Of a stretch of 64,000 nt of DNA, positions 2,190 to 54,460 are shown piece by piece. The notes beneath the pieces are model-generated. The model worked only from the letters and a program-made list of their open reading frames with translations. It was not told the origin of the DNA and searched no databases. How positions within the stretch are numbered: the stretch's first letter is position 1; each line of letters opens with the position of its first letter. The stretch lies in assembly GCA_963762055.1 (NCBI GenBank), contig CAVXJF010000007.1:71452-135451 (forward strand). Reading direction: 5' to 3'. Position numbers and translations under genes: made by a program. This DNA is from Vicinamibacterales bacterium (GTDB lineage Bacteria; Acidobacteriota; Vicinamibacteria; Vicinamibacterales; JAMQPK01).

Positions 2190-2741
2190 TTGATCGACGA
2201 AGTGCTCAACGGCGACATGCCCTTGAACGAGCTCCACATCGAGATCGACGACCAGTGCCTGAAGCTGCTGGCGCTGCACTCGCCGATGGCGGCGGACCTC
2301 CGGGCGGTGATGGCGGCCATCAAGATCAACAGCGATCTCGAGCGGGTCGGCGACATGGCGGTCAACATCGGCGAGGCCGCCCGCCGGTACGCCTCGCATC
2401 CTCCGGTCAAGAAACTGATCGACATCCCGCGGATGGCCACGACGGCCCAGAGCATGTTGCGCGATGCGCTCGACTCCTACGTACGCGGCGACATGCAGCT
2501 CGCCCAGCAGGTGCTGGACGAAGACGACGCGCTGGACTCGCTGAAGACGCAGGTGTTCCGCGAGCTGCTGACGTATATGCTGTCCGATCCCGCGACCATC
2601 GAGCCGGCCCTCGACCTCATCCTGATTTCACGCCACCTCGAGCGCGTCGGCGACCATGCGACGAACATCGCCGAGGACGTCATCTTCATGGTGTCGGGGC
2701 GCGACGTCCGCCACCACGCGGGCGTGGATCATCAAAGCTAG
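2190..2741 (+). CDS. phoU: phosphate signalling regulator PhoU (N-terminal ~41 codons in another frame from ATG 2066)
   Basis: Two PhoU repeats are present (SDLERVGDMAVN, RHLERVGDHATN). [22 protein letters not shown]...DRDGEL is read from ATG 2066 (TAATG overlap with pstB) and joins LIDEVLNGD at about 2190 across a 1-nt frameshift. Confidence 0.85.
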   Translation: MIDEVLNGDMPLNELHIEIDDQCLKLLALHSPMAADLRAVMAAIKINSDLERVGDMAVNIGEAARRYASHPPVKKLIDIPRMATTAQSMLRDALDSYVRGDMQLAQQVLDEDDALDSLKTQVFRELLTYMLSDPATIEPALDLILISRHLERVGDHATNIAEDVIFMVSGRDVRHHAGVDHQS

Positions 2742-2812
2742 CCAGTAGCCGCTAGCCAATAGCCATTAGTCCTGAGGCTGGTAGCAGTCCCGCCGGTAGC
2801 CACTAGCCTTAC
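2739..2812 (+). repeat. TAGCC-word spacer starting with the phoU stop codon
   Basis: Sequence is tagccagtagccgctagccaatagccattagtcc...ggtagccactagcc. The 12-mer TAGCCAGTAGCC recurs at 31461 and 35364, and TAGCCAATAGCC recurs inverted at 28397. Confidence 0.85.
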
Positions 2813-2828
2813 AGTAGAATGTCGTTTT

Positions 2829-3005
2829 GTGCCTGCGCGTGTCTGCGTCTTTTGTCGCCGCGAGCCCGCACAAGCGCCCTGGGTTCCTTTCTGCAGCGAG
2901 CGGTGCAAGCTTCAGGATCTTGCCCGGTGGGTGGACGGCCGCTATCGCGTGCCGGCGGAGCCGGTTCAGCAGGATACGGACGATCACGAGGATTCTGAGG
3001 AATAG
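2829..3005 (+). CDS. yacG: YacG-like zinc-ribbon protein (58 aa, below the ORF-track cutoff)
   Basis: From GTG 2829 to TAG 3003-3005 it reads [58 protein letters not shown]. CxxC plus PFCSxRCxxxDLxxW and an acidic tail match the YacG family as I recall it. Confidence 0.6.
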
Positions 3006-3034
3006 CCGGGAGCCGGAGGCCGACGCCACAACAC

Positions 3035-4314
<1,280 letters not shown>

Positions 4315-4315
<1 letters not shown>

Positions 4316-5280
4316 TGCCCCATAGGTTCGGGTTCGGGTTCCAGGGTTCCGGGTTCCAGGTTCTGGTTCCTGGTTCCGGGTTCTGGGTTCCCTGGCTGCA
4401 GCATTCGCTCTTTGCTCTCTGCCATTCTGCTCTGTCAGCGCAGAAGGAGAAGCCGGCGCCGCCCGCCTTCGACAGCTCCCGCGCGTACGAACATCTCCGG
4501 CAGATCGTCAACATCGGCCCGCGGCCCGCGGGCTCGCCCGGCATCGCCCGCTCGCGCGCCTACATCACCGAGCAGCTGAAAGCGGCAGGCGTATCGGTGG
4601 CCGAACAAAGCTTCGTCGCCAGGACGCCGATCGGCGACATCGCGATGGTCAATCTCGTCGCGACCATTCCGGGCGCGCGCAAGGAGCGCATCGCGATCGC
4701 CGGGCATTACGACACGAAGCTCTTCCGCGAATTTCGCTTCGTCGGGGCCAACGACGGCGGCTCGAGCACGGCGTTCCTCATCGAGCTCGCGCGGGTGATC
4801 AAGGGGCGCGCAAATCCCTTCACGGTTGAGTTGATTTTCTTCGACGGCGAAGAGGCGACGCTGCGCGACTGGGGGCCGGGCGACCACACCTACGGCAGCC
4901 AGCACTACGTCGATCAGGCGCGCAAGGCCGGCACGCTCGCCGGGCTCAAAACGCTGATCCTGGTCGACATGATCGGCGAGCGTTCGCAGCAGTTCATGCG
5001 GGAGGCGAGATCGACGAGGTGGCTCACCGACGTCATCTGGTCCACCGCGCAGAAGATGGGACACCGCACGATCTTCGTCAACGCGGAGACGCCTATCGAG
5101 GACGACCACGTGCCCTTCCTCGATGCAGGCGTCCCGGCGGTGGACATCATCGACCTCGACTACGCCGCCTGGCACACGCCGGCCGACACCCTCGAACAGG
5201 TTTCAGCGCGCAGTCTGCAGGTCGTCGGGGATGTCGTGCTCGCGTCGCTGCCCGCGATCGAAGCCCGCCTCGCCCGGTAA
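4315..5280 (+). CDS. M28 family peptidase (glutaminyl-cyclase-like)
   Basis: Motifs GHYDTK, GANDGGSSTAFLIELARV, FFDGEEA, LVDMIGE and DDHVPF are present. ATG 4315 overlaps the gltA TAA (TAATG). The first ~25 codons are the GGTTCC repeat, and no other canonical start lies downstream. Confidence 0.75.
4325..4392 (+). repeat. GGTTCC/GGTTCT hexamer-word tract
   Basis: Sequence is ggttcgggttcgggttccagggttccgggttccaggttctggttcctggttccgggttctgggttcc. The reverse-complement family occurs at 24713-24775 and 33676-33711, and the same-sense family occurs on the minus strand at 13361-13403. Confidence 0.9.
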
Positions 5281-5298
5281 AATCAATTCTTAAGCAGG

Positions 5299-5364
5299 AG
5301 TTTAGGAGACTAGGAGTTTGGAAGTTCTTTCTTCATAAGAAATTCCTCCTAATCTCCCAATCTC
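5299..5364. terminator. long imperfect hairpin built from AGGAG / CTCCT words between convergent genes
   Basis: The left arm gagtttaggagactaggagtttggaag pairs with the right arm attcctcctaatctcccaatctc. The right arm also encodes the C-terminus of the minus-strand zinc-ribbon ORF. Confidence 0.4.
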
Positions 5365-5565
5365 ATGTTCGTCTTTAGATTCGGCGAAGAGGTACGCGAC
5401 CAGCCCTATCAACACGATGATCGCAAACACGAGGTAAACGATCAGCGGACGCTTGCGCTTCGGCGCGACGTACGGCTTGTGCACCGGCTCTTGCACCGAT
5501 GCGCCGCAACGAAAACAGATCAACGCCTTGTCGGCGATTTCGGTCCCACATTCTCGGCACTTCAT
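5302..5565 (-). CDS. zinc-ribbon membrane protein
   Basis: MKCRECGTEIADKALICFRCGASV (CxxC...CxxC) is followed by one hydrophobic helix (LIVYLVFAIIVLIGLVAYLF). Confidence 0.55.
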   Translation of the reverse strand: MKCRECGTEIADKALICFRCGASVQEPVHKPYVAPKRKRPLIVYLVFAIIVLIGLVAYLFAESKDEHEIGRLGGISYEERTSKLLVS

Positions 5566-5604
5566 ACGCGATACGGGCTGGGATTATATGTCACAATCCA
5601 GCGC

Positions 5605-6264
5605 ATGATTCCGCTGCGCGACGTCATTCCGTCGCGGACCTTTCCGATTTTCACGGTCACCTTCATCGCTCTCAACACCATCGCCTTCATCTTCGATCGC
5701 ACGCTGTCGGAGCGCGGCCGTGAGGCGCTGGTGTTCACCTACGGCGTCGTCCCCGCTCGGCTCGATCTGGTTGCGATCTTTACGTCGATGTTCCTCCACG
5801 GCGGCTGGCTTCACTTTCTCGGCAACATGCTCTACCTCTGGATTTTTGGCGACAACGTCGAAGATCGCCTCGGGCATCTGCGCTTCGTGGTGTTCTATCT
5901 CGTCTGCGGCGCCGCCGCGGTGCTCGCCCACGTGTGGATGAATCCCGCTTCGATGATTCCCACCATCGGAGCCAGCGGTGCAATCGCCGGCGTGATGGGG
6001 GCGTATTTCGTGCTCTATCCGCACTCGCGCGTGCTTGCGCTCGTGCCGCTTTTCATCATCTGGGAAGTGCTCGAGGTGCCCGCGATCATCTTCCTCGGCC
6101 TCTGGTTCCTCATGCAGTTCTTCATGGGCGTCGGAGGACTCGCGACACAGTCAGGGGCGGAAACAGGCGGCGTCGCGTTCTGGGCGCACGTCGCGGGGTT
6201 CGTCGTGGGAATGGCCGCGGTGCTGGTGATGCGGAAACCCTCACGCACACGCTGGGCCGCATAA
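5605..6264 (+). CDS. rhomboid family intramembrane serine protease
   Basis: From ATG 5605 the motifs HGGWLHFLGNMLYLWIFGDNVEDRLG and GASGAIAGVMGAY are present. The ORF-track start at 5365 overlaps the opposite-strand gene. Confidence 0.85.
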   Translation: MIPLRDVIPSRTFPIFTVTFIALNTIAFIFDRTLSERGREALVFTYGVVPARLDLVAIFTSMFLHGGWLHFLGNMLYLWIFGDNVEDRLGHLRFVVFYLVCGAAAVLAHVWMNPASMIPTIGASGAIAGVMGAYFVLYPHSRVLALVPLFIIWEVLEVPAIIFLGLWFLMQFFMGVGGLATQSGAETGGVAFWAHVAGFVVGMAAVLVMRKPSRTRWAA

Positions 6265-6270
6265 GCAATT

Positions 6271-6352
6271 CAACCACAGAGAACACAGAGGTCCACAGAG
6301 AAGAGAATTCCTCTTTCAAAGAACTCTGTGCGTCTCTGCGTCCTCTGTGGTT
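6271..6352. terminator. ~80-nt imperfect hairpin of CACAGAG / CTCTGTG words between convergent genes
   Basis: ccacagagaacacagaggtccacagag pairs with ctctgtgcgtctctgcgtcctctgtgg (27 positions: 3 mismatches, 2 G-U). There is an inner aagag/ctctt stem. Confidence 0.55.
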
Positions 6353-6361
6353 AAAAAGTAT

Positions 6362-11958: not shown

Positions 11959-12684
11959 CTACCCCCGGCGTGGCTTCGCGGCTTCAGAGTCATTGGCGCA
12001 AATCACCAGCGACCAGATGCGCGGAAGATTCACCTTTTCGATCGACGCGGCACGGAGGCCCGTCTGCGCCAGGAACGCGGGCAGGTCGAAATCGGATTTG
12101 AAGCCGAGGTGCACGGTAAGCGGTGCAATCGCGCGTTCGAGCTTCGACGTGACGATGTTGTCGCTGAGGAAATGATTCAGGAACACGAGGCGTCCACCCG
12201 GACGGCACACGCGCCGCATCTCCCGCGTGACAGCCAGCGGATCGGGCACGCAGCTGATGAAGTAGGGGGCGTAGACGATGTCGAACGAATTGTCAGGGAA
12301 CTTCAACTCGGTCGCATCCATCTGAATGAGCCGCACGTTGCGGAGCTTGTATTGCTCCACGCGCGCGCGGGCGCGCTCGAGCATGCCTTCGGAAAGGTCA
12401 ATCGCGGTCACAGAACACTTGGCTGGATACAGCGGAAGACTGATACCGGTCCCAACGCCTACCTCGAGAATCCGGTCGTCAGGCGCGATGGCCATGCGGG
12501 CAATGGCTTTCGCGCGGCCGTGATGCAAAGGGAGCCCGAAAAACAGGTCATACACCGAGGCCATTTTCTCGTAGACGCCTTCGACGAAGGACGTCTCGAG
12601 CGATATGGCCGACAAAGAACGTGTTGCAGCGTCTGAAGTGATTGCGAATTCTTTATCCTCTTCTCTCGGGAAGAGCAGCGCCAT
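11959..12684 (-). CDS. pmtA: class I SAM methyltransferase, Rhodobacter PmtA/UbiE-like type
   Basis: Motifs VYDLFFG, ILEVGVGTGISLPLY, AIDLSEGML and FDIVYAPYFISCVPDP are present. Confidence 0.55.
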   Translation of the reverse strand: MALLFPREEDKEFAITSDAATRSLSAISLETSFVEGVYEKMASVYDLFFGLPLHHGRAKAIARMAIAPDDRILEVGVGTGISLPLYPAKCSVTAIDLSEGMLERARARVEQYKLRNVRLIQMDATELKFPDNSFDIVYAPYFISCVPDPLAVTREMRRVCRPGGRLVFLNHFLSDNIVTSKLERAIAPLTVHLGFKSDFDLPAFLAQTGLRAASIEKVNLPRIWSLVICANDSEAAKPRRG

Positions 12685-12706
12685 TACGCCTCCGTCGAGG
12701 ACTATA

Positions 12707-13360
12707 TCAGATCGTCATACGTTGGTGAGCAAGCGTCTTGCCATCAATCAGGAGGTAGGAAGCCGACACCTCTTCGAGACCGATCGACGGCACGTGCTGA
12801 CGCTCGGCCACCGTGTATTTGTGGTGATGGCCAAAGAGATGCGCCCGCGGCTGCATAGCGGCGAGGACTTCGTTGATTGGTGTCTTGCCGGCGTCCTGTA
12901 CTCTCGGCAGAGGATAGGGACGAGCGGCTTCGTGTGACAGGAAGATGTCGATGCCCTTCATGGCCGAACATGCGTCGACCTCGCTGCGTACGAAGTGACG
13001 GCGGCGGTCGTCGCGCGCTGACAATCGCCGGAGCTCGAGTGTCGGCTTTTCGTACCACGTCGGCGCGTACGTGCCGCCTAGCCCCGCCAGGCGGAATCCC
13101 TCGGCCTCGACGATCGCGCCATTCGGGATGTAGTACAGGTTCGGCAGCGTACCGCCGCCGGCTGGCTGGGCGGCGACGAAATCGAAGTCTTCGTTGTTGC
13201 CTTTGATCCAATACAGGGGAGAGCGCGGCGTCGGGTACTCCCCGCTCTCCGAGGCAACGTCGCCGGGACAAACCCAGAATGCGACCTCCGGATGGCGCGC
13301 CATCACGCGATCGAGCGCCTCGAAGTCGCCATGCAGATCGCCAATCGCGCCAAAGAACAT
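12707..13360 (-). CDS. metallophosphoesterase
   Basis: From ATG 13360 the protein reads MFFGAIGDLHGDF, followed by GDV, GNNED and GHHH motifs. The upstream part of the ORF-track entry overlaps the next gene. Confidence 0.7.
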   Translation of the reverse strand: MFFGAIGDLHGDFEALDRVMARHPEVAFWVCPGDVASESGEYPTPRSPLYWIKGNNEDFDFVAAQPAGGGTLPNLYYIPNGAIVEAEGFRLAGLGGTYAPTWYEKPTLELRRLSARDDRRRHFVRSEVDACSAMKGIDIFLSHEAARPYPLPRVQDAGKTPINEVLAAMQPRAHLFGHHHKYTVAERQHVPSIGLEEVSASYLLIDGKTLAHQRMTI

Positions 13361-13403
13361 GGAATAGAACCTGAACGTGGAAACTGGAACGCGGAACTGG
13401 AAC
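13361..13403 (-). repeat. GGTTCC-word spacer filling the whole gap between two minus-strand genes
   Basis: The minus strand reads TAG|gttccagttccgcgttccagtttccacgttcaggttctattcc|ATG. It shares the 12-mer GGAACGCGGAAC with 24726-24737. Confidence 0.85.
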
Positions 13404-15247: not shown

Positions 15248-15288
15248 GTAAAAAGAGGGTCAGACCCCCTTTTTACGTTTTTTGTAAA
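15248..15288 (+). terminator. nested palindrome / terminator-like hairpin between lytS-like and lytTR genes
   Basis: gtaaaaagagggtc-a-gaccccctttttac is followed by gTTTTTT. About 25 nt (gggtcagacccc(c)tttttacgtttt) recur inside gltB at 58579-58602. Confidence 0.6.
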
Positions 15289-16767: not shown

Positions 16768-16791
16768 ATGCTGAACTCGTAGGATTGGAAG

Positions 16792-16826
16792 ATTGGTAGA
16801 TTGAACGACTGAAGCAATCTGCCAAT
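16792..16826 (+). terminator. hairpin after lepB whose 3' arm (CAATCTGCCAAT) overlaps the next start codon
   Basis: attggtagattg (16792-16803) pairs with caatctgccaat (16815-16826) as 11 Watson-Crick pairs plus 1 G-U. ATG 16825 lies in the stem. Confidence 0.45.
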
Positions 16827-18868: not shown

Positions 18869-18954
18869 TTACAGGAGGATCTTATAGCGGTTCCTTCCGG
18901 AACAGGTACAATCGAAACAGCTTGCCGCGCGCGAGCACGCCGCGCGGCCCATAT

Positions 18955-38805: not shown

Positions 38806-38816
38806 TGTCCATCGAT

Positions 38817-39146: not shown

Positions 39147-39159
39147 TTCCGCTGTCTCC

Positions 39160-41769
39160 TTATTGTGTCGTGTGATGACCGTCGCGCATCGCCGCTCGCG
39201 GCTCCTGAAGCATGCGCTCGAGGCCCGCTTTCAAGGCGGCTTCCTCGCTGTCCGAAAGCTTCGCACCGGCGCGCGTCATGTGAAACACGTCGATGGCTTT
39301 GTGCCCTTCGGTCGAGATCAGGACCAGATCGACGTCAATCCCCTGATCGGAGATGACCCGGCTGACTCGATACAATAATCCCGGCGCGTCTTCGGCAACG
39401 AGTTCGAGCACGGTGTAGCGCTGCGAGTGGCCGTTGTCGAAATACACGACCGGCTCGCGGCGTACGACCGATCGCCGAACCAGCACGCTGCCCTCTTTTC
39501 CCTTGAGCAGCGAGGATACGTCTATTTTCCCGCTCACGACCTCGTGCAGCCGCTTGTCGAATTCCTTCCGGCCTTCGGAATTCCGCTCGAAGAACTCATC
39601 GGTGTCGGCAAACTGGAACACATCGAGCGCCGTCCCGGAAAGGCTGGTGAGCGCGTGCCCGCGGAGAATGTCCATGCTGAAGTATGCGAGCACACCGCAG
39701 ATGTTGGAGAACAGAAACGGCTTGTCGAGCGAGACGACCGTCAGCTCCCACGACTCGGCCTTGCGTTCGAGGAAAAAATGCGCCTCGTCCGGCTTGATGT
39801 CGCGCGAGAGGCGCACGTGGCGGTAGATCGCGTCGGGCGAAAACAGGATCAGGTAGCGTCTGGGCAGACCCTCGAGGAATGCGGCCATCTCGCCCTCGGA
39901 AATGTCGCCCGGCCGATTCGTCTGCAGAGCGGCCACCGACGCCTGCTCGCGGTCGATGATGTCGTCGCCGTAGCCGAGGGTCATCTGGTTGTAGGCGTCG
40001 ACATACAGCCGCCAGAGCAATTCTTCCTTCCACGGCGTCAGCGTGTCGGGGCTGACGGCGCCGACGTCGCACAGCGTCAGTAGAACGAGCATCTTCAGGT
40101 GCTCTTCGGTGCTGAACAACGAGGCGAATTGCCGGACGACTTCTGGCTCTTCGGTATCGCGACGGAACGCCACGCGCGACATATTGAGGTGATAGCGAAT
40201 CAGAAAATCGATCGTCTGCCTGCCGTCTTCATCGAGACCGAGCCGCTGCGCCATGCCCCTCGCCATCTCGGCGCCGACGATGGAATGGTCGCCTTCGCGC
40301 GCCTTGCCCACGTCGTGATACAGCAGCGCGAGGACGAGCAGCTCGGGAACGCGCACCTCGCGCAGAATCGGACCGAACCTCGGGTTGTTCAACAGGCGCT
40401 CGGCGTTGCGCACCGTGAGGAGCGTGTGCTCGTCGACGGTGTATTTGTGATAGAAATCGCGCGTCACCTGGCACGAAATTTCGTTCAGCTCGGGAAAAAT
40501 CGCGCCCAGCAGGCCGCAGTCGCGCATCTCGCTGAGCCGCGCCGACAATCCGGGACGCGGCCGCATGAACTGCAGAATCCGCTGCTGATGGGCGGGGGTC
40601 GGGTGAAACACCTGCGGCGGGTAGTTGTGCACCTGCTGCTCTCGCTCCATCATCGCGAGCGCATCATCGGCCACCGGCACGTTGCGAGAAACAGCGGCCT
40701 CGAATGCGAGCAGCCATTCGGCGGGCGACGCGGCCGCCTTGGCGGGATCGCGGAACGTGATGCCCTCGACCACCCACATCAGGTTTTCGCCGACGAGGCG
40801 GATGGGAATCGGCGCAGGCGGCACGGCCGCGCGGCGCACGCGGCCGAGCGCGCGCGTCACGCTCCGCGCATCGCGGAAAAACCCGGTCATCAACGACTCG
40901 ACCCGGCGGCGCATGTCGGCCCCGGGAATCTTCATCCGCTCGACGGCTTTCTCCTGGAGCTCATAGCTGAGCACATTGGCGTTCCGCCCGGTGTCGAGAT
41001 GCAGGCCCGAGCGAATGCGCGTGAGGAATTCTTCGGCGTCATTCACACGGTCGGGTGACGGCCCGCGTACGATGTGGCGACGGTCGCCGCCGAGCCGCAG
41101 CATCATGCGGGTCGCCCAGACGTCGCGCAGCGCGCCAGGTCCGTCCTTCACGTCGGGCTCGAGCTGATAGAACGTGTCATGGAACTCGCTGTGACGTTGA
41201 TCGGTCAGGTTCATGAGCGCGTCGATAATCTGCGGCCGCCACGCGTCGGCCACCGACGTCACAAAGCCGTCGAGGTGCTGCAGGAGCTTCCGATCGCCGG
41301 CCAGCGGCCTCAAGTCCATCAGCGCGAGCAGATATTCGGGGTTGCTGGTGTCGGGCTGGTCGAAGTCGCCGAGTTCGCGGACGTGATGGCCGACCTGAAA
41401 GCGCAGGTCCCACAGCGGATGCAGGAGCGCTTTGACGAATCGCTCATCGGGACGGCCGATCGCCGCGCCGAAGACCACGAGGAGGTCGATATCGGAATGC
41501 AGGAACTGCGACTTGCGGCCGTAACCACCCACCGCACACACCGCAAGCGGCGCATTCGTGTGTACGCGCGCGGCATCGACCAGCTCGCGGATGATGCCGT
41601 CGATCGCGTCGGCGTGCCTCGTCAGGGCGGCGCGGCCACCTTCGCCGCGCTCGGTGGCGGCAATCAGCTCCTGCCGCGCAGTCTGCAACGCCGTGGACAG
41701 CCGGGTACGCAGCTCCGCCTGGTCGACGTCTTTCCCCTTAGCGGGGCGCATTGCCACCCATGACGCCAT
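39160..41769 (-). CDS. glnD: [protein-PII] uridylyltransferase/uridylyl-removing enzyme GlnD
   Basis: 869 aa. The NTase motif GGYGRKSQFLHSDIDLLVVF, an HD domain (LLYHDVGK) and two C-terminal ACT-like segments are present. Confidence 0.9.
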   Translation of the reverse strand: MASWVAMRPAKGKDVDQAELRTRLSTALQTARQELIAATERGEGGRAALTRHADAIDGIIRELVDAARVHTNAPLAVCAVGGYGRKSQFLHSDIDLLVVFGAAIGRPDERFVKALLHPLWDLRFQVGHHVRELGDFDQPDTSNPEYLLALMDLRPLAGDRKLLQHLDGFVTSVADAWRPQIIDALMNLTDQRHSEFHDTFYQLEPDVKDGPGALRDVWATRMMLRLGGDRRHIVRGPSPDRVNDAEEFLTRIRSGLHLDTGRNANVLSYELQEKAVERMKIPGADMRRRVESLMTGFFRDARSVTRALGRVRRAAVPPAPIPIRLVGENLMWVVEGITFRDPAKAAASPAEWLLAFEAAVSRNVPVADDALAMMEREQQVHNYPPQVFHPTPAHQQRILQFMRPRPGLSARLSEMRDCGLLGAIFPELNEISCQVTRDFYHKYTVDEHTLLTVRNAERLLNNPRFGPILREVRVPELLVLALLYHDVGKAREGDHSIVGAEMARGMAQRLGLDEDGRQTIDFLIRYHLNMSRVAFRRDTEEPEVVRQFASLFSTEEHLKMLVLLTLCDVGAVSPDTLTPWKEELLWRLYVDAYNQMTLGYGDDIIDREQASVAALQTNRPGDISEGEMAAFLEGLPRRYLILFSPDAIYRHVRLSRDIKPDEAHFFLERKAESWELTVVSLDKPFLFSNICGVLAYFSMDILRGHALTSLSGTALDVFQFADTDEFFERNSEGRKEFDKRLHEVVSGKIDVSSLLKGKEGSVLVRRSVVRREPVVYFDNGHSQRYTVLELVAEDAPGLLYRVSRVISDQGIDVDLVLISTEGHKAIDVFHMTRAGAKLSDSEEAALKAGLERMLQEPRAAMRDGHHTTQ

Positions 41770-41800
41770 AAGGATACTTCGCCGCCGGCATCGACGAGCA

Positions 41801-41862
41801 GGGATTCGGTACCCGGGTTTATCCCGATCCCGGATTCACCAATCCCCGATCCCCGATCCCGA
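41801..41862 (+). repeat. CCCGATCC word spacer
   Basis: Sequence is gggattcggtacccgggtttatcccgatcccggattcaccaatccccgatccccgatcccga. Confidence 0.75.
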
Positions 41863-41879
41863 GTAGCGAGAACGCGTCT

Positions 41880-42749
41880 TCAGTAGGTCATGCCGATGCC
41901 GATGGAGACGATAACCTGGCTGCCTTCGGGCTCGCCGTCCTTGACGTTGAGCGATTTCGTCCCGTCGCCAAGGGCGAGGAAGTTCACGCCGCCGTGAAGA
42001 TTCCAGGTGCCGAACTTCGTCGGAGCGCTCGAGAACGGCACGGTGACCAGCGCGCCGATATCGAAAAAGCCGAACCCGTTGTCCTCGCCGTTGGCCTCGT
42101 AGTAATCGCTCAAGCTGAAACCGAGCTTCAGCGGAATGCCGAGCGTCGCCCCGCCGCCGCCCAGCGGAAAGCTTGGCGCGGCGCCGAGCTCCGCGTAGGT
42201 GCCCTCTTCCGACCCGCCGTCAGCCTGCCCGCTCAACTCGAACGCCACGAGGCCGTAGGGCGCGAACCTGCTCGCGTGCGCGAACTTGAACGCGAGCTCC
42301 TTCACCGTGCCGAACGAGCCGTTCCCGCTGGTGTAGGCGGTATAGAACGGGGAGATCGTGATGCCCTTCCCCACGCCGAGGTTGAGCATGGCGTAGAAAT
42401 CTTCTTCGTAGTGGCTCCCCTTGCCGGGTATGTCTGAACCGGAACCGGACGAGCCGGTGTTGAGGCTGCTCCACACGCCGAAGTTCATGCTGACGCTCTG
42501 TCCGTCGTCGTTCGAAAACAGCGAGATGCCAACGTCGCCGAAGGCGAACATCGTCAGCGACGGATCCGCTTCCTGCCGGATGCCGCGGAAGAAGTACACA
42601 CTCGGGAAGTCCACGCCCGTCGCGAGCGTGATCGCTCCCGGATTGGGATCATCCTGGGCGCGGGCCGTGCTTGCCGCGCCTGTCAACAGGATTGCCGCAG
42701 CGAGGGTCGTTCTGACGAGTCTGGACGTGTAGGACGAAGATGCGATCAC
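41880..42749 (-). CDS. outer-membrane beta-barrel protein (TorF/Gcw_chp-like putative porin)
   Basis: A signal peptide, alternating beta-strand pattern and an aromatic C-terminus (GIGMTY) are present. The gene sits between amtB and glnD. Confidence 0.55.
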   Translation of the reverse strand: MIASSSYTSRLVRTTLAAAILLTGAASTARAQDDPNPGAITLATGVDFPSVYFFRGIRQEADPSLTMFAFGDVGISLFSNDDGQSVSMNFGVWSSLNTGSSGSGSDIPGKGSHYEEDFYAMLNLGVGKGITISPFYTAYTSGNGSFGTVKELAFKFAHASRFAPYGLVAFELSGQADGGSEEGTYAELGAAPSFPLGGGGATLGIPLKLGFSLSDYYEANGEDNGFGFFDIGALVTVPFSSAPTKFGTWNLHGGVNFLALGDGTKSLNVKDGEPEGSQVIVSIGIGMTY

Positions 42750-42812
42750 GTAGGGCCTCCAGATATGAGGTGCCGGCGGAGCTCCGTGCCCCGCCGGCGG
42801 TTAAGGACACAC

Positions 42813-44216
42813 TCAGGCAACTTCAGCGCGGTTGCGCAGCGACACGGGCGGCGCAAAACCGACATACGCCTCCTGGCCGTGCTCGCCGATATCGAGACCC
42901 ATTTCTTCCTCTTCCTTGCTGACGCGGAGCCCGATCGTGTACTTGATGAGCAGCCAGAACACCGTCGAAATAACCAGGGTATAGACGCCGACGGCCACAA
43001 TGCCCTTGATCTGCGCCATCAGCAGCGTCATGCCGCCGCCATGCAGCAGGCCGTTGCCCGTTGCCGCGCCGGTGATCTTGTCGACGGCGAAAATGCCGAC
43101 ACACAGCGTTCCGAACACGCCGTTGAACAGGTGCACGGGGACCGCACCGACCGGATCGTCAATCTTCAGCGAGTCGAGCAGCTTGACGGCGAAGACGACA
43201 AGCATGCCGGCGAGCAACCCGATGACCAGCGACGCCTGAACGGTCACAAACGCGCACGGCGCGGTGATCGCGACGAGACCGGCGAGCACGCCGTTGACCG
43301 ACATGCTGAGGTCGGGCTTGCCCTCCCACATCCAGTTGATCGCCGTCGCCGACAGGAGCCCCATGAAGGCCGCCGTATTGGTTGTCATGAAGATGTGCGC
43401 GATGGCGTTCGCGTCGACGGCCATCGTGGACCCCGGATTGAACCCGAACCAGCCCAGCCACAACACGAAGCAGCCGATCACGCCCGAGGTGAAACTGTGC
43501 GGCGGAATCGCGTTGACCTTCCCATCCGGGCCGTATTTGCCGAGCCGCGGGCCGAGCACGAGAATGCCCGCCAGCGCCGCCCATCCGCCCACGCTGTGCA
43601 CGACCGTCGATCCCGCGAAGTCCCAGAACCCGGCTGACGCGAGGAAGCCTCCGCCCCAGATCCAGTGGCCGGTGATCGGATAGACAAAGGCCACGAGCAG
43701 GAACGAAAAGACGATGAACGACAGATACTTGATGCGCTCGGCGACGGCGCCTGACACGATCGTCGCCGCCGTGCCGGCGAAGACGAGCTGGAAGAAAAAT
43801 TTCGCGTTCAGCGGAACGCCCGTCCACGCGATCGACTTATAGGCGCCCACATAGGCATCACCGGTCGCGGGACTGTTATCCGCGCCGCCCAGCGCGAAGA
43901 GGCCTTCCAGCCCCATCAACCCGGTGCCGTTGCCGAACATCAGGCCCCAGCCGAACACGTAAAACGCCAGACAGGAGATCGCGAAGACGATGAAGTTCTT
44001 CGAGAGGATGTTGACGGTGTTTTTCGCCCGGCAGAATCCCGACTCCACGAGGGCGAAGCCGAGGTTCATGAAAAATACGAGCGACGCGGTGATTAAAACC
44101 CAGACAGTGTCCATCCCGACTTTGAGGTCGGCAGGCGTCTGCGCCAGTGCGGGTGTCGCTCCCATCACGGATAGCAGCAGCCCGGCCGCCACGATTCCTG
44201 GCAATTGCTTTCTCAT
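42813..44216 (-). CDS. amtB: ammonium transporter AmtB
   Basis: 467 aa with a signal peptide, 11 TM segments and Amt signatures (DFAGSTVVHSVGGWAAL, VHLFNGVFGTL). AAGGAGG lies 5 nt upstream of the ATG. Confidence 0.95.
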   Translation of the reverse strand: MRKQLPGIVAAGLLLSVMGATPALAQTPADLKVGMDTVWVLITASLVFFMNLGFALVESGFCRAKNTVNILSKNFIVFAISCLAFYVFGWGLMFGNGTGLMGLEGLFALGGADNSPATGDAYVGAYKSIAWTGVPLNAKFFFQLVFAGTAATIVSGAVAERIKYLSFIVFSFLLVAFVYPITGHWIWGGGFLASAGFWDFAGSTVVHSVGGWAALAGILVLGPRLGKYGPDGKVNAIPPHSFTSGVIGCFVLWLGWFGFNPGSTMAVDANAIAHIFMTTNTAAFMGLLSATAINWMWEGKPDLSMSVNGVLAGLVAITAPCAFVTVQASLVIGLLAGMLVVFAVKLLDSLKIDDPVGAVPVHLFNGVFGTLCVGIFAVDKITGAATGNGLLHGGGMTLLMAQIKGIVAVGVYTLVISTVFWLLIKYTIGLRVSKEEEEMGLDIGEHGQEAYVGFAPPVSLRNRAEVA

Positions 44217-44281
44217 CGTTCCTCCTTGAACAGAAATGAATGCGGCGCGCCCGATGAACTGTCGCCTCTGCCTACAGGAAT

Positions 44282-44297
44282 TGCACGAGGGATGCCA
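44282..44297 (-). promoter_or_regulatory. sigma-54 (-24/-12) promoter upstream of amtB
   Basis: The minus strand reads TGGCATCCCTCGTGCA, with GG and GC at the consensus spacing (TGGCAC-N5-TTGCA). It lies about 65 nt upstream of the amtB ATG and next to a sigma-54 activator gene. Confidence 0.55.
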
Positions 44298-44557
44298 TTG
44301 TGTGCAAGGGGTAAATTGCGTTTTTGCTAAGGATTTGCACTATTTAGTCGATCCCGCGATCACACAAACGCGTCAGACTACCTGCGCTGAGCGACAATCC
44401 TGTACCTTTCACGAATTGACTCCGGGCCGCGGCAGCCACCGATCGCGGCACAGAATTTTTCGACTCCGGCAAAAACTGTGCAACTCGCCGCGGGCAACGG
44501 CGTCAGGAAGATGGGCCTACAAACTTGTCGGTGTGAACCGAACGGGCAGCGTTTTTG

Positions 44558-46132
44558 TTACTTCTTGAACCGGCGCCAGTCGATGCCCAGCAGCCGCACC
44601 TTGTAGTTCATGATGCGGCCGGTGGTGTTGAGCAGACGCGCGGCCTTGGCCCGGTTGCCGCGCGCCGTCTTCAACGCATCCTGGATCAAGTCCTTCTCAT
44701 ACGCATCGATCGCGTCCTTCAATGAGAGGCTCATCGCCGTGCCGGACGAGGCCGCCGTCTGCAGCGATGGCGGCAGGTGATGCGCGTGCACGACCTGGCC
44801 GTCGCAGACGACCACGGCCCGTTCGACCGCGTTCTCCAGTTCGCGCACGTTGCCGGGCCAGTGATACGCCATCAACATGTCGATCGCCGGTGTCGAGATC
44901 CGCTTGATGTGTTTGCCGTGCGCGAGTGACGCCTTCTCGAGGAAATGGTCGGCGAGCAACAGCAGGTCGGGTTTCCGCTCGCGCAGGGGCGGCAGAAAAA
45001 TGGAGAACACGTTGAGACGGTAGTAGAGATCTTCCCGGAAGCCGCCGTCGGCAATCGCTTTCTCCACGTCCTTGTTGGTGGCGGCGATCATCCGCACGTT
45101 CGTGCGAAGCGTCTTCGTCCCTCCGAGGCGCTCGAATTCTCGCGCCTGAAGCACGCGCAGCAGCTTGATCTGCGTCGCGACGTTCAGCTCCCCGATTTCG
45201 TCGAGAAACAGCGTGCCCCCTTCGGCGAGCTCGAACCGCCCCTTTTTGGCGGCGTGCGCCCCGGTAAACGCGCCCTTTTCATAGCCGAACAGCTCTGACT
45301 CGATCAGGCTTTCGGGAAGCGCCGCGCAGCTGACTTTGATGAACGGCCGTTTCGCGCGCAGCGAGTTGTAGTGCACGGCCTGCGCGATGAGCTCCTTGCC
45401 GGTCCCCGATTCCCCGCGGATGAGCACCGTCGTATCGGTGCGCGCCACTTGAGACACCTGCTCGTACACCAGCCGCATCGGCCCGCTCGTGCCGAGGATG
45501 TTCGAGAAATCGTACCGCTCGCGCAGCTCGCTCTTGAGGTGCGTGTTTTCCTCGCGCAGCCGATCGCGTTCGGCGTCGATGACGCGCTGTATGCGGATCG
45601 ACTGGGCCATGAGCGACGCCACGACGCCCAGGAACTTGACGGTGCGATCGAAATCCCGTTCGGCCTTGAAGCGGAAATCGGCGCCGAGCGCGCCGACAGC
45701 CTTGCGGTTCAGCAGAATGGGCACGCACACGTAACTGATCTCTTCGCGCGACAGCTCCGGCCGATCGGCCGTGCGCCGCAGGAACATCGGCTCCCGCGAC
45801 ACGCGCGGCACGACGATCGGCTTGCCGCTCTGGACGACCCGTCCGGTAATCCCCTCGCCGAGCCGGAATTTCGCGTCGGCGTTTCCGCCCGCCGGCCCTT
45901 CCGAGGCGGCGACCTCGATATCGCCGCTCGCCGTGAGGAGCGTGACGGTGCTCCGGACGACGCTGTGATGGCGCTCGAGAATCGTGAGTACCTGGTGCAG
46001 TGCGGTTTTGTGATTGCTTCCAGCCGCGAGCGTCTGACTGATTTCGAGCAACGTCGACAATCGCCGAAGCTCGCTCGTCCCGCTGCTGGTTGTTGCTTCC
46101 GCTAGTTTCAACCCGGCTGCGCTCCATGCCAT
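44558..46132 (-). CDS. GAF-domain sigma-54-dependent transcriptional activator (NifA-like architecture), copy 2
   Basis: It has the same architecture as 33798-35366 and by eye about 70% identity to it ([17 protein letters not shown]). Confidence 0.9.
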
Positions 46133-51314: not shown

Positions 51315-52919
51315 ATGTCCAGCGCGTCACGGACGGCATCCATCCTCGTCGGGGCCATCGGCGCCCTGGTGTTCTTCGGCGGCTGGATGCTCGGCATCGA
51401 ACTGCTGAAGAGCGCAGGTGGCGGCATCACGATGAAGGCGAATGGCGCCCTCGGCCTTTTGCTCGGCGCCGTCTCGCTGTGGTTCATCGGAAGCGAATCA
51501 CGGCTTGGCCGGCGCGTTGGCATCGCGTGCGCAGCGCTCATGGGACTCCTTGGCGCGGCCACGCTCAGCCAACACCTGACGGGGTGGGATCTCGGCATCG
51601 ATCAGCTTTTTTTCGTCGAATCCGCCGGTGCCGCGGCAACGGCGAGTCCCAACCGGATAGGGCCCAACACATCGCTGAGCTTCTTCCTGCAATCGGTCGC
51701 GCTGATACTGCTTCACCAATCGGGGGCGCGCGGCATCGCGCGCGCGCAGGTGATTTCTGCCGGCGCAACCATTCTGGCGATCATTCCTCTCGTCGGCTAC
51801 GCCTACGGCGCAGAGGAGCTTTATGGGCTCGCGCGGATCTCGGGCATCGCGATGCACACGGCGGCCGCGCTTCTGATACTGGGCATCGGCATTGTGACCG
51901 CGCGGCTCGATGTCGGGCCGGTTGGCGCGCTGGCGAGCGAGGGCGCGGGCGGGGTCCTCACCCGCCGGATGATCGTTCCCTCCCTTGTGCTCCCGTTTCT
52001 TCTCGGTTATCTCTGGCTTATCGGCGAGCGCGCCGGTTATTACGATGCGGGGCTCGAATCCGCCCTCTCCGCGACATCGCTGGCCGTCGTGCTCTGGATC
52101 ATCATCTGGCGGACGGGCCTCGTGCTCGATCGGATCGATCACGAGCGGAGCGCCGCGCTGACGCGTGAGCGCGCCGCGCGCGCCGAAGCGGAACACGCGA
52201 CGAAGCTGAAAGACGAGTTTCTCGCGGTGCTGTCGCACGAGCTCCGCACGCCGCTGAACGCCATTCTCGGATGGACGTCGATGCTGCACCGGCACACGAT
52301 GCCGGCCGACCAGAGAGACCATGCGACGCAGATCATCGCCAGGAACGGCGAACGGCTTGGCCGGCTGATTGAAGATCTGCTGGACGTATCGCGCATCTCG
52401 TCCGGGCATCTGACGCTGACGATCGAACCGGTGGACATCGCCGAAGTGATCGACAACGCGGTCGAGGCGTTGACGCCGGCCGCCGCCCACCGCCAGGTTC
52501 ACATCGAATGCCGGCTCGCGGAAGATGCCTACGGTGTTGCCGGCGATCCTCGGAGGCTCGAGCAGATTGTGCGGAATCTCTTGTCGAACGCGATCAAATT
52601 CACCGGCGCGGGCGGCAGCGTCACGATCAGCACCCGGCGGGTATCGGATGAGATCGTTCTCGACGTGCGCGATACGGGATGCGGCATCGACGCGGCCTTT
52701 CTGCCGCATGTGTTCGACAGGTTCCGGCAGGGGGACTCGAGTCTCACGCGCGAGCACGGCGGCCTCGGGCTCGGACTGGCGATCGTGAGGGATTTGACGG
52801 CTCTTCACGGGGGCCGCGTAGAGATTACGAGTCCCGGTCCCGGTCTGGGGACGACGGTGACCGTGAAGCTGCCGCTCGTCTCGTCGGTGAAGGGCGATCT
52901 CAGCCGCCGGGCGATGTAG
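51315..52919 (+). CDS. membrane sensor histidine kinase (multi-TM input, HisKA, HATPase)
   Basis: About 7 hydrophobic helices are followed by [19 protein letters not shown] and GGLGLGLAIV. There is no adjacent response regulator. Confidence 0.85.
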   Translation: MSSASRTASILVGAIGALVFFGGWMLGIELLKSAGGGITMKANGALGLLLGAVSLWFIGSESRLGRRVGIACAALMGLLGAATLSQHLTGWDLGIDQLFFVESAGAAATASPNRIGPNTSLSFFLQSVALILLHQSGARGIARAQVISAGATILAIIPLVGYAYGAEELYGLARISGIAMHTAAALLILGIGIVTARLDVGPVGALASEGAGGVLTRRMIVPSLVLPFLLGYLWLIGERAGYYDAGLESALSATSLAVVLWIIIWRTGLVLDRIDHERSAALTRERAARAEAEHATKLKDEFLAVLSHELRTPLNAILGWTSMLHRHTMPADQRDHATQIIARNGERLGRLIEDLLDVSRISSGHLTLTIEPVDIAEVIDNAVEALTPAAAHRQVHIECRLAEDAYGVAGDPRRLEQIVRNLLSNAIKFTGAGGSVTISTRRVSDEIVLDVRDTGCGIDAAFLPHVFDRFRQGDSSLTREHGGLGLGLAIVRDLTALHGGRVEITSPGPGLGTTVTVKLPLVSSVKGDLSRRAM

Positions 52920-52920
52920 C

Positions 52921-54369
52921 TCAGGCCAGGGGAGCGGGCAGGTCGGACTTCCCCATCAAGTACAGATCAACGCCCCGTGCTGCGCTGCGGCCTTCGGCGA
53001 TCGCCCAGACGATGAGCGATTGGCCGCGCTGCATGTCGCCGGCCGTGAACACACCGGGCACGCTGGTCATCCAGTTGGTGTCACGCCACACGTTGCCGCG
53101 CTCGGTCAGCTTGACGCCGAAGTTGTCGAGCAGCCCCTGGCGCTCCGGCCCGAGAAAACCCATCGCCAGCAGCACGAGATCGACGTCCAATTCGAACTCG
53201 CCGTCGGGAACGTTTTCGAATGCCATGCGCCCGTCCTTGCGCACGAGCTCGACCTTGGAGCCGTGGAGCTTGCTGACCCGCCCCTGGCTGTCGCCGCTGA
53301 ACCGCTGCGTCGACACGGAATAGACCCGTTCCCCACCCTCTTCGTGAGCCGTCGACACACGGAATACGTTCGGCCACTGTGGCCACGGATTTTCGGCGGC
53401 ACGGGTGTCGGGCGGCCTGGGAAGGAGCTCGAATTGGTGCACGGACAAGGCACCCTGGCGGTGCACCGTGCCGAGACAGTCGGCGCCGGTATCGCCGCCG
53501 CCGATGATCACCACGCGCTTGCCCTCGGCGGTGATGAAGTCGCCATCGCGAATCGGATCCCCCTCGACGCGTTTATTCGACAGCGTGAGATATTCCATCG
53601 CGTAATGAATGCCTTTGAGCTCCCGCCCCGGCACCTGAAGATCGCGCGGCCATCCTGCTCCGCCAGCGAGCACGACCGCGTCGAACTCCGATTTCATCTG
53701 ATCCAGAGTGACGTCGACACCGACATTGACGCCCGCGCGGAACGTCACCCCCTCCTGTTCCATGAGGTCGAGCCGCCGGTTCAGAACCTTCTTCTCCATC
53801 TTGAATTCGGGAATGCCGTAGCGCATCAGCCCCCCGATTCGATCCGACTTTTCAAACACGGTCACGAAGTGACCGGCGCGATTCAGCTGCTCTGCCGCCG
53901 CGAGACCGGCGGGGCCCGATCCCACCACGGCGACCTTCTTGCCCGTTCGCACCAGGGGCGGCTGCGGCGTGACCCATCCGTTCTCGAAGGCCCTCTCGAC
54001 GATCGCGACTTCGATCGACTTGATCGTGACCGGATCGTCGTTGATGCCGAGCACGCAGGAACCCTCACACGGGGCAGGACACAGACGTCCGGTGAACTCG
54101 GGAAAGTTGTTGGTCGCGTGCAGCCGCTCGATGGCCGGCTCCCAGCGATTGCGATAGACCAGGTCGTTCCAGTCGGGAATCAGATTGCCGAGGGGACATC
54201 CCTGATGGCAGAACGGGATGCCGCAGTCCATGCAACGCGCGCCCTGCTTCTGGAGCTCTTCCTGCGGATACGGCAGGTAGACTTCGTTCCAGTCCTTCAG
54301 CCTCTCGGCGACGGGACGCGTCGTCTGCTTCTTGCGATGGATTTCGATAAAACCTGTAGGTTTCCCCAT
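52921..54369 (-). CDS. gltD: glutamate synthase small subunit
   Basis: Begins MGKPTGFIEI, with Cys clusters and two dinucleotide folds (VAVVGSGPAGLAAA, VVIIGGGDTGADC). Confidence 0.95.
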   Translation of the reverse strand: MGKPTGFIEIHRKKQTTRPVAERLKDWNEVYLPYPQEELQKQGARCMDCGIPFCHQGCPLGNLIPDWNDLVYRNRWEPAIERLHATNNFPEFTGRLCPAPCEGSCVLGINDDPVTIKSIEVAIVERAFENGWVTPQPPLVRTGKKVAVVGSGPAGLAAAEQLNRAGHFVTVFEKSDRIGGLMRYGIPEFKMEKKVLNRRLDLMEQEGVTFRAGVNVGVDVTLDQMKSEFDAVVLAGGAGWPRDLQVPGRELKGIHYAMEYLTLSNKRVEGDPIRDGDFITAEGKRVVIIGGGDTGADCLGTVHRQGALSVHQFELLPRPPDTRAAENPWPQWPNVFRVSTAHEEGGERVYSVSTQRFSGDSQGRVSKLHGSKVELVRKDGRMAFENVPDGEFELDVDLVLLAMGFLGPERQGLLDNFGVKLTERGNVWRDTNWMTSVPGVFTAGDMQRGQSLIVWAIAEGRSAARGVDLYLMGKSDLPAPLA

Positions 54370-54382
54370 TTCAGTTCAATTC

Positions 54383-54460
54383 GACGCAGAGACGCAAAGA
54401 CGCAAAGACGCAAAGGGCGGATTTTTCCTTCGAAGCTCTGCGCCTCTGCGCCTCTGCGTC
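54383..54460. terminator. GACGCAAAG / CTCTGCGCC word hairpin between gltB and gltD
   Basis: gacgcagagacgcaaagacgcaaagacgcaaag pairs with gaagctctgcgcctctgcgcctctgcgtc. Confidence 0.45.

Follow-up and report, generated by a model that had tools for sequence, protein, structure and literature searches.

What are the strings of degenerate short words that pad the boundaries of genes in a 64,000-nt stretch of contig CAVXJF010000007.1 from a Vicinamibacterales bacterium (hereafter the window)? The first-pass annotation of this DNA described such padding and did not place it in any described repeat family. The padding itself was borne out by the present analysis. Its novelty was not, since the anatomy of the tracts is that of known heptamer-dominated long simple-sequence repeats (LSSRs). 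The tracts probably represent a genome-wide trait of the Vicinamibacterales, namely LSSRs generated by slippage under selection, with two-armed forms that resemble repetitive extragenic palindromic (REP) elements. The arrays are gained, lost, resized and rearranged quickly, and their survival is limited to places where little harm results: on stop codons or directly behind them (most of all where genes converge), in short operon spacers, and in dispensable protein tails and linkers.

Period, position and density of the arrays

Arrays were detected with Tandem Repeats Finder (TRF) and with a second, independent detector of word redundancy. The pool for their anatomy comprised 1.56 Mb, made up of the window and 80 loci of about 21 kb each, taken from species representatives in GTDB that belong to the same order. 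Genes were called from G+C content at third codon positions (GC3), by which 85.7% of the pooled DNA is coding. The arrays run head to tail with units of 7-9 nt, period 7 dominates, and most lie in non-coding DNA. By TRF, the numbers at non-coding, boundary and coding positions were 151, 16 and 60 for period 7, 66, 2 and 62 for period 8, and 52, 1 and 12 for period 14; periods 6, 9, 12 and 15 were overwhelmingly coding, with 267 coding arrays of period 9 and 151 of period 12. The word-redundancy detector gave the same picture of periods, and the pattern was replicated in 80 further contigs (0.52 Mb) from metagenomes of the Joint Genome Institute (JGI), where 64 arrays of period 7 were non-coding and 20 coding. 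Array density is about 170 per Mb in Vicinamibacterales. Arrays of period 7, 8 or 14 with a score of at least 40 numbered 13.5 per 100 kb; 100 kb of S. meliloti pSymB, a control matched for GC, had 2. With a strict fixed-period detector the window yielded five tracts, and 20 Markov-3 shuffles yielded none.

The position of the arrays relative to genes is strongly biased. Tracts were found in 83 of 245 convergent spacers (34%), 90 of 754 tandem spacers (12%) and 24 of 233 divergent spacers (10%); divergent spacers are the longest class, yet they carry the fewest tracts. The median distance was 12 nt to an adjacent stop codon and 70 nt to an adjacent start codon. The first-pass annotation had noted tracts that begin on or after stop codons, and the pooled loci agree with both this and a general enrichment at gene ends: by TRF boundaries, 145 of 421 distances to a 3′ end lay between -10 and +15 nt, counted from the first base of the stop codon, compared with 46 of 311 for starts. 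The first unit often includes the stop codon itself, as in the window at 2739 (phoU), 17692 (CDF transporter), 23037, 31501 (Ddl-like gene) and 35364, and a sizeable family of TAG-containing arrays begins exactly on stop codons. A role as stop-codon pads active in all three frames was considered and rejected, as TAG occurs in units at expectation (46 vs 44) and TGA and TAA are depleted.

Every tract listed by the first-pass annotation was present at its coordinates, most were recovered by TRF with periods of 7, 8 or 9, and the exact words it quoted were in place (CAGGACTACC at 23111 and, within the mosaic at 28366-28427, at 28387; GGAACGCGGAAC at 13386 and 24726; CAATCTGCCAAT at 16815, 30408 and 30452). 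Its proposal that the tracts recur as exact 12-28-mers across the window did not hold, as the number of shared 12-mers (1385) is near the roughly 1040 expected by chance. The longest shared words, of at least 14 nt, come from paralogous sigma-54 activator genes and from a separate 29-nt REP-like element, and only three pairs of tracts share at least 14 nt: 2738/35363 (a 14-mer shared with the tract at 35364-35385), 6329/54383 and 17701/37735 (a 17-mer shared with the array at 37674-37751). What stands out robustly is the tandem arrangement at short periods, and not the sharing of exact long words. Five of the tracts have only two or three units and are weak when taken alone (16815, 31455-31475, 33676-33711, 35364-35385 and 24521-24550). 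The paralogous GAF/sigma-54-activator genes lie at 33798-35366 (+) and 44558-46060 (-); the exact 20-26-mers they have in common, at 34428-34732 and 45192-45496, are the longest repeats of the window.

Turnover among close relatives

Turnover was followed in five related genomes (L001, L002, L003, L016 and L048) with mutual average nucleotide identities (ANI) of 94-96%. Their ordinary spacers align base for base and their array spacers do not; tracts have been gained and lost at the same junctions, as the presence/absence polymorphism raised in the first-pass annotation would have it. After the stop codon of the glnE-like gene two genomes have no tract, two have an additional 64 nt, and one has an additional 110 nt in the form of a two-armed CAGATTGG element. 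A GGTTCGT hairpin between two convergent genes measures 126 to 239 nt across the five genomes, and its loop is inverted in three of them relative to the other two (L001 7058-7235 and the same spacer in L016, L048, L003 and L002). A GGAACC insertion in a divergent spacer is private to one genome.

Wider comparisons gave the same impression of replacement at fixed sites. After the stop codon of the Ddl-like gene seven relatives have a spacer of 1-10 nt and no tract, and the others, including the window, have tracts of at least six word families; these sites are thus reused and their sequences replaced. The polymorphic tract here sits between the Ddl-like gene and a small conserved Cys-rich ORF at 31231-31450 (-) (...HHVLWEVS...TTCVMVSCCGGAELQ...), which is found immediately downstream of that gene in every close relative (orthologous positions in L004-L016). 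At the spacer between the DUF218 and histidine kinase genes, inverted CAGATTGG arrays flank a gene for a vWA-like secreted protein of 335-340 aa in L002, L003 and L008. In L048 (about 12105-12160) the inverted arrays flank only a 60-nt remnant of this gene, and in L001 and the window (30402-30475) the gene is absent and a single arm is present (30408-30463 in the window).

Several known kinds of element were considered for these polymorphic sites and rejected. MITEs (miniature inverted-repeat transposable elements) do not fit, the junctions having no target-site duplication and lengths that change in unit steps (0, +64 and +110 nt at one site, 126-239 nt at another). Integron attC sites or cassette arrays do not fit either: the genes beside the arrays belong to the core housekeeping set and occur in both orientations, no integrase was found among the scanned ORFs, and the L048 remnant reflects a deletion within the gene and not recombination at the arms. 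Gene-in-hairpin cassettes as a class were also set aside, the roughly six independent cases of single genes between inverted arrays of one family, against four with direct arrays, being insignificant once orthologous duplicates are removed.

Unit composition and copy number

No sequence is common to all arrays, 95 different heptamer necklaces being represented among 167 arrays of period 7. Families such as GGGAGTT, GGGATTT, GGCAGATT and GGTTCNN recur at many loci across the order, and, as claimed initially, word families occur in both orientations at many loci. Common necklaces other than GGGAGTT include GGGATTT (10 arrays), GGTGGTT (8), AGCTGGT (7) and the (G/C)GCAGATT group (about 18), each at several unrelated positions. 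Word sharing between arrays is 4.1% within one record and 1.3% across records. The units are strand-asymmetric, with one strand rich in G+T and the other in A+C; ATG/CAT and TGT/ACA are depleted, and GGG/CCC is not enriched (72 vs 63 expected). Copy number has its mode at 4.0-4.5 units, or about 30 nt (52 of 235 arrays), in GGG-containing and other words alike, and its distribution is non-monotonic. An arrangement of constant core and variable spacer, in the style of protein-binding sites, was rejected because mismatches are not significantly concentrated in two adjacent positions (0.652 vs 0.626; no array with p≤0.05).

Folding of the arrays

About 40% of sites are two-armed, consisting of an array and an inverted copy that together form a long stem without a U-tract; more than half are one-armed direct arrays. 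Among 222 sites, 38-45% fold more stably than shuffles at thresholds from z < -3 to z < -2, compared with 7-16% of control spacers. The long hairpins reported initially stand for four strong tracts of the window and weakly for a fifth; seven others are unstructured (Table 1). Of 85 strong hairpin sites only 2 have TTTT, on whichever strand, at 10 nt or less from the stem, and a scan for consensus terminators found 20 where 16.7 were expected, which is no enrichment. The hairpins are therefore not canonical intrinsic terminators. In tandem spacers the sense-strand RNA was predicted to fold more stably than the antisense in 26 hairpins and less stably in 15 (p about 0.05-0.12), a bias in modelled folds that is at most a hint of selection at the level of RNA. 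Rho utilisation (rut) sites were rejected for the one-armed form, as among 55 such arrays in tandem spacers a C-rich sense strand is not seen more frequently than a G-rich one.

Origin and maintenance of the arrays

The distribution and turnover of the arrays are probably due to a few processes. Growth and shrinkage would proceed in unit steps, by replication slippage or unequal exchange. Inverted arms may arise and be homogenised by template switching or by recombination between arms, which the inversion of the hairpin loop and the words common to both arms support. Purifying selection on coding sequence and promoters would then shape where arrays survive. The two-armed sites are expected to be transcribed as long stem-loops without U-tracts at mRNA 3′ ends or between cistrons, and most likely act in the manner of REP elements, as barriers to 3′-exonucleases or as sites of factor-dependent pausing or termination. 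One-armed arrays would be nascent or decayed forms with no required function.

Several observations weigh against this account. TTGG/CCAA occurs in 70 of 235 units of period 7 or 8 (26 expected) and GATT/AATC in 50 of the same 235 (11 expected). Heptamers recur at many unrelated loci and across genomes that are only about 70-78% identical, GGGAGTT alone accounting for 19 arrays in 11 records; random seeds followed by slippage explain neither observation. The signature of slippage, a greater likeness of neighbouring units, is absent, adjacent units being no more alike than distant ones (0.96 vs 1.14 mismatches; 10 vs 17 arrays), and copy number peaks at four units with no monotonic decay. An RNA role for the hairpins lacks the support of T-runs, and the difference in stability between sense and antisense folds is marginal. 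With respect to transcription the one-armed arrays are oriented without bias, which argues against rut sites or a simple sense-strand RNA signal. Slippage under selection leaves the recurrence of words at many loci and the four-unit mode unexplained.

Because adjacent and distant units are similarly alike, words are shared across the order and four units are preferred, a functional or directed alternative stays alive. In one such alternative, which we consider unlikely, the arrays are selected cis-acting elements at gene ends, either sites for a single-strand-binding protein in a register of about 7 nt or four-tract G-quadruplexes (G4). They would tune 3′-end formation, mRNA stability or local DNA topology, with cold-shock-domain (CSD) proteins as candidate binders. 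ATTGG is the classical Y-box core of these proteins. The non-random choice of words agrees with such a role, both in the enrichment of TTGG/CCAA and GATT and in the depletion of ATG/CAT and TGT/ACA, as does the survival of word families across the order despite turnover of single arrays. The four-unit mode, found in GGG and other words, is as seen for G4-forming heptamers (PMC4692102), G4 structures could form at 4325-4392, 17694-17756 and 41801-41862, and there is a precedent in CspB, which binds direct repeats of heptamers, each heptamer taking one protein (PMC4679880). Selected sites are harder to reconcile with 95 distinct necklaces, with unenriched GGG/CCC, with the lack of orientation bias, and with arrays that are present or absent at the same junction in near-conspecific genomes with no visible compensation; the scanned ORFs of the window include no CSD gene.

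A bolder and rather doubtful idea is that the arrays, instead of being passive products of slippage, are written and maintained by a lineage-specific, sequence-directed process. They might, for example, serve a multimeric single-strand-binding protein as platforms of about four units in a 7-nt register, built around a TTGG/GATT core; the protein would define the 3′ ends of mRNAs or resolve convergent transcription, and existing arrays would be the source from which new ones are copied by template switching at stop-proximal breaks. Such a process, if true, would explain order-wide words despite turnover within 5% divergence, the four-unit mode and the equal likeness of units.

Mobility offers another, quite improbable, explanation, in which the tracts are non-autonomous elements resembling MITEs, REPs or bacterial interspersed mosaic elements (BIMEs) and are copied by a transposase encoded elsewhere, such as a Y1 enzyme of the type of IS200 or of the REP-associated tyrosine transposases (RAYTs). 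Word families shared by many loci in both orientations, presence/absence differences between close genomes, and two-armed forms with a central loop would all be expected of such elements, as would single genes flanked by inverted arrays of the same family (the vWA-like gene in L002, L003 and L008), and a true GTAG-bearing REP-like family occupies the same spacers. The tracts have no constant length, termini or target-site duplication, however, and their sizes change in unit steps (126-239 nt at one site). They comprise dozens of unrelated words, direct arrays with a single arm make up over half of the sites, and the L048 remnant records a deletion inside the flanked gene with no excision at the arms. 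In agreement with the first-pass annotation, which had found no mobilising gene in the window, a scan of about 50 window ORFs against Pfam identified no transposase, integrase or Y1/RAYT.

It is very improbable that the two-armed tracts are bidirectional intrinsic (Rho-independent) terminators and the remainder chance low-complexity sequence. Enrichment between convergent genes and beside stops, and the great stability of the stems, would suit terminators; the scarcity of TTTT near strong stems, the unenriched terminator scan and a strong hairpin within the gltB-gltD operon do not, and one-armed arrays far exceed chance. Assembly or polishing artefact can be dismissed with near certainty for the phenomenon, if not formally for each tract of the window: repeats are difficult to assemble, and L034 has N runs at two sites (1656-1787 and 18785-18924) where its sister L031 has heptamer or longer tandem arrays, but similar tracts occur in 160 Vicinamibacterales contigs from many projects and assemblers, short- and long-read, often at orthologous junctions, and they respect reading frames and stop codons. 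The N runs of L034 suggest that arrays break or become masked in some assemblies.

Reports of heptamer arrays at the ends of bacterial genes go back to 1990, with surveys in 2007 and 2015. The Vicinamibacterales are abundant soil bacteria with many long-read metagenome-assembled genomes (MAGs), and their dozens of word families and sets of genomes at 94-96% ANI amount to a natural experiment. The mutation mechanism, selection on copy number and 3′-end function become testable through comparative genomics and through Term-seq in cultured relatives.

Arrays within reading frames

The initial observation that some tracts are read as the ends of ORFs was confirmed, and such tracts appear as N- or C-terminal extensions or as linkers. 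N-terminal extensions contain the tracts at 383-454 (Tmk), 4325-4392 (M28 peptidase) and 24713-24779 (TPR protein). The first is translated as DKEQKAESKEQKGESKEHK ahead of thymidylate kinase, whose Pfam Tmk domain begins only at residue 60 of the ORF. The tract at 32540-32600 forms the tail of a Peptidase_Mx-like protein, the core of which ends in ...TRGTFTGD(K/R)R in all relatives and is followed by a different tail in each. The GlnE-like protein has a repeat-encoded linker (37674-37751) where relatives have a variable, non-repetitive one. The hairpin at 5299-5364 makes up the final 20 or so codons of a minus-strand zinc-ribbon ORF of 87 aa. This zinc-ribbon and transmembrane (TM) ORF (5302-5565, -; MKCRECGTEIADKALICFRCG...) lies opposite the first 80 or so codons of a long rhomboid ORF (5365-6264), and a start of the rhomboid gene near 5605 (MIPLRD...) is more likely.

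In practice the arrays lengthen or shorten predicted ORFs, giving false N- or C-terminal tails and spurious starts, and they are likely assembly break points or masked regions, of which annotators of Vicinamibacterales genomes should be aware.

Tracts of the window and their genomic context

The window has a G+C content of 61-66%. Its Ddl-like (D-Ala-D-Ala-ligase-like) gene, at 31504-32529 on the minus strand, has its closest protein matches, at no more than 91% amino-acid identity, in soil MAGs of the Vicinamibacterales, phylum Acidobacteriota (GTDB representatives). No relative closer than 91% was found in the JGI metagenome collection, and an exact-protein look-up of the citrate synthase gave no match. 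Three of the related loci (L010, L029 and L046) come from MAGs titled 'uncultured Bifidobacteriaceae bacterium', yet are syntenic with Vicinamibacterales at 72-88% protein identity; the titles look like taxonomic mislabels.

The genes of the window are ordinary chromosomal ones, among them tmk, pstB, phoU, citrate synthase, an M28 peptidase, a rhomboid protease, two-component systems and moaC. A nitrogen neighbourhood at 37408-46060 contains a glnE-like adenylyltransferase gene, glnB (P-II), glnD, a porin-like ORF, amtB and an NtrC-type activator gene, and gltD-gltB follow at 52921-58631, further along the same neighbourhood; several arrays consequently fall within or between co-regulated units. 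A search of the window against Rfam 15 at gathering score matched only two tRNA-Leu genes. They lie at 21916-22004 (-) and 62257-62342 (+) and have the anticodons CAA and TAG.

Table 1. Tracts of the window, with predicted folds (folded span in brackets) and neighbouring genes, and related elements mentioned in the text. Positions are those of the window unless a related locus is named.
Feature	Position	Strand	Fold	Context
AAAGAGC-type array, 7-nt words, 21-nt higher-order unit	383-454 (TRF 393-442)			Starts at stop of upstream ORF (384)
TAGCCNN array, period 7/14	2737-2812		Weak, z -1.4	First unit includes PhoU stop TAG (2739-2741); inverted GGCTNGTAGC words in distal half
GGTTCCN array, 9.9 units	4325-4392		Unstructured, z -1.1	10 nt past citrate synthase stop (4313-4315); in putative N-terminus/signal-peptide region of M28 peptidase ORF
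Two-armed AGGAG / CTCCT array hairpin	5299-5364		z -3.1 (5290-5366)	Between convergent M28 peptidase gene (+, stop 5280) and 87-aa zinc-ribbon/TM ORF (-)
Two-armed CACAGAG(NN) / CTCTGNG array hairpin	6271-6352		-40.6 kcal/mol, z -6.6 (6265-6361)	Between convergent rhomboid gene (+) and C13-like peptidase gene (-)
GGAAC-word array	13361-13403			Fills whole 43-nt spacer from ferredoxin stop (13404, -) to metallophosphoesterase ATG (13360, -)
GATTGGNA x2.6, then inverted CAATCTGCCAAT, short hairpin	16783-16826 (TRF)		z -2.5 (16775-16830)	Between signal peptidase stop (16767) and CDF transporter start (16825)
GGTGCGTTG x6.7, period 9	17694-17756		Unstructured	Between CDF transporter gene and convergent moaC; first unit overlaps CDF transporter stop TAG (17692-17694)
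Mosaic of GTTCGTNAG units, then GACTC/GGACT words	23036-23128		z -1.0	Between convergent genes; first GTTCGTNAG unit includes stop TAG (23037-23039)
Short TAGCC / GTAGCTG array	24521-24550			2 nt past DUF4159 gene stop (24517-24519); REP-like palindrome directly after
GGAACCN array, period 7, 21-nt higher order	24713-24779 (TRF)			Upstream of, or inside, N-terminal tail preceding TM helix of TPR protein; GGTTCT array at matching position in relative L004
Two-armed CACAGAGAG / CTCTGTGNC array hairpin	28291-28362 (TRF)		z -4.5 (28285-28372)	Divergent spacer 27978-28518
Mosaic of GGTAG / CTACC / GGCTA words	28366-28427		z -1.4	Adjoins hairpin at 28291-28362
CAATCTGCC / CCATCCTC array, period 8/20	30408-30463		Unstructured	Fills spacer of convergent histidine kinase (stop 30401) and DUF218 (stop 30476) genes; arrays of same CAGATTGG family in orthologous spacer of relatives
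GCTCTCT x2.7 and GTAGCC x2	31455-31502			Begins at Ddl-like gene stop
GGACT/GAGTC words	32540-32600			Last ~25 codons of Peptidase_Mx-like ORF (32529-33626, -)
Short CAGAACCC word tract	33676-33711			Divergent spacer; weak alone
TAGCCAG TAGCCG TAGCCCC	35364-35385			First unit is sigma-54 activator stop codon (35364-35366)
CACCCGTCG x8.6, period 9/27, in frame	37674-37751			Codes (GAT/GAL)n linker of GlnE-like protein
CCCGATC x5.3	41801-41862		z -0.8	18 nt downstream of minus-strand gene stop (41880), ahead of glnD
Two-armed GACGCAAA / CTCTGCGC array hairpin	54383-54460	minus	-56.8 kcal/mol, z -7.9 (54375-54467); sense (minus-strand) transcript with 34-bp stem (28 + 6, one internal loop), using G-U pairs	Inside operon, between gltB stop (54468) and gltD start (54369); genes by Pfam
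REP-like element, 29 nt	24554-24582 and 37350-37378 (inverted)
REP-like family in related loci	L001 12236; L006, L015, L016, L017, L031, L036, L039, L044, L065, L070, L072
vWA-like gene between inverted CAGATTGG arrays	L002 12129-13136; L003 about 12190-13175; L008 12045-13067			DUF218/histidine kinase spacer

A separate REP-like family and other palindromes

The 29-nt element belongs to a family with the consensus (AC)GTAGT-GTCCGGCT-TT-AGCCGGAC-C, a palindrome with a 7-8-bp stem preceded by GTAG, as in RAYT-associated REPs. Besides its two copies in the window, 16 were found in 12 of the 80 related loci, nearly all of them intergenic and often beside heptamer arrays. A conserved palindrome combined with GTAG makes this GTAGT-GTCCGGCTTTAGCCGGAC element fit the description of a REP, a combination that the arrays do not have. 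A second REP-like unit, GGTAGT-GCGCGACT-TC-AGTCGCGC, is contained in the loop of the GGTTCGT hairpin. At 37360-37431, between the convergent pfkB-family and glnE-like genes, a 25-nt unit (AAGCCGGACACTACGTACGATCGTT) is repeated 2.8 times; it combines the REP-like palindrome's right half with the ACTACGTACG flank. Relatives have CAGATTGG arrays there.

A perfect palindrome with a 21-bp stem, GGGGTCAGACCCCTTTTTACG-TTTTC-CGTAAAAGGGGGTCTGACCCC, lies at 58580-58625, near the predicted 5′ end of gltB, and one copy of its word (GGGTCAGACCCCCTTTTTACGTTTT) is found at 15252-15281, after a histidine kinase gene, at 15247. The word common to 58580 and 15247 looks like a shared terminator-type module, with a small GGGGTC/GACCCC hairpin and a T-run, which would place the start of gltB downstream of 58580.

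Comparison with known repeat systems

Among the REP/BIME elements of enterobacteria and pseudomonads, REPs each consist of one conserved imperfect palindrome, bear a GTAG motif and are moved by RAYTs. The arrays share their extragenic niche after stops, between convergent genes and between cistrons, their polymorphism between strains, and hairpins without a U-tract, which in REPs are transcribed; they differ in having no conserved sequence and in being built of tandem units. The short tandemly repeated repetitive (STRR) heptamers of Calothrix and Anabaena, described by Mazel and colleagues in 1990, reportedly comprise several families per genome and are intergenic and tandem. Coexisting heptamer families, intergenic position and tandem arrangement are thus common to both, whereas the words and the phylum are different, and no dimer of the STRR word CCCCAGT was found in 2.1 Mb of related loci. 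We know of no report of stop-codon phasing in STRRs.

The TAACTGA heptamers of marine Beggiatoaceae consist of one word, almost always in direct orientation, just upstream of start codons (PMC4679880). Like the arrays described here they are intergenic tandem heptamers in short sets (2-6 copies) beside housekeeping genes, but the Vicinamibacterales arrays have many words, a 3′-end location and frequent inverted arms, and the 2.1 Mb of related loci contain no dimer of TAACTGA.

As summarised in later work, the LSSRs of Mrazek et al. (2007) have units of 5-11 nt, of which heptanucleotides are the commonest, and are typical of large high-GC genomes of non-pathogens; units in multiples of three lie in coding DNA, and the origin proposed for them is slippage, with a polymerase footprint of 7 nt (PMC4679880, PMC4692102). 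Judged by these summaries, the abundance of heptamers and the coding location of multiples of three are the same in the Vicinamibacterales. The arrays here are degenerate mosaics and not near-perfect simple-sequence repeats (SSRs), and neither Acidobacteriota nor Vicinamibacterales are among the genomes that the summaries call LSSR-rich. No description of such arrays in Acidobacteria turned up in the literature.

The heptamer arrays GGGAATC of Xanthomonas and GGGGA(C/T)T of Nostoc PCC 7120, described by Rehm et al. (2015), are genome-wide and non-coding. They sit no more than about 50 bp from stop codons, seldom occur between divergent ORFs and prefer four units; inverted copies are able to form stem-loops, and the arrays vary between close relatives and adjoin housekeeping genes (PMC4692102). 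An exact GGGNATC dimer was absent from 162 loci (2.1 Mb), near-matches being confined to 41841-41861 of the window, where the opposite strand of the 41801-41862 array reads GGGGATC, close to the GGGNATC type. Assignment of the arrays as a whole to the GGGNATC G-quadruplex family was rejected, as the units do not share the GGGNATC consensus with its G3 tract and GGG/CCC is not enriched. The location bias, four-unit mode, inverted copies, variability and housekeeping neighbours are all shared, and tandem iteration at period 7, stop proximity, polymorphism and the preference for four units place the Vicinamibacterales arrays in the class of heptameric SSRs. They differ in having dozens of word families and no single dominant word, in that most of these words are not G-tract words, and in that octamers and nonamers are also common and some 40% of sites are two-armed. 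The kind of bacterial repeat is thus one already described, and what is new here is the lineage and the word set.

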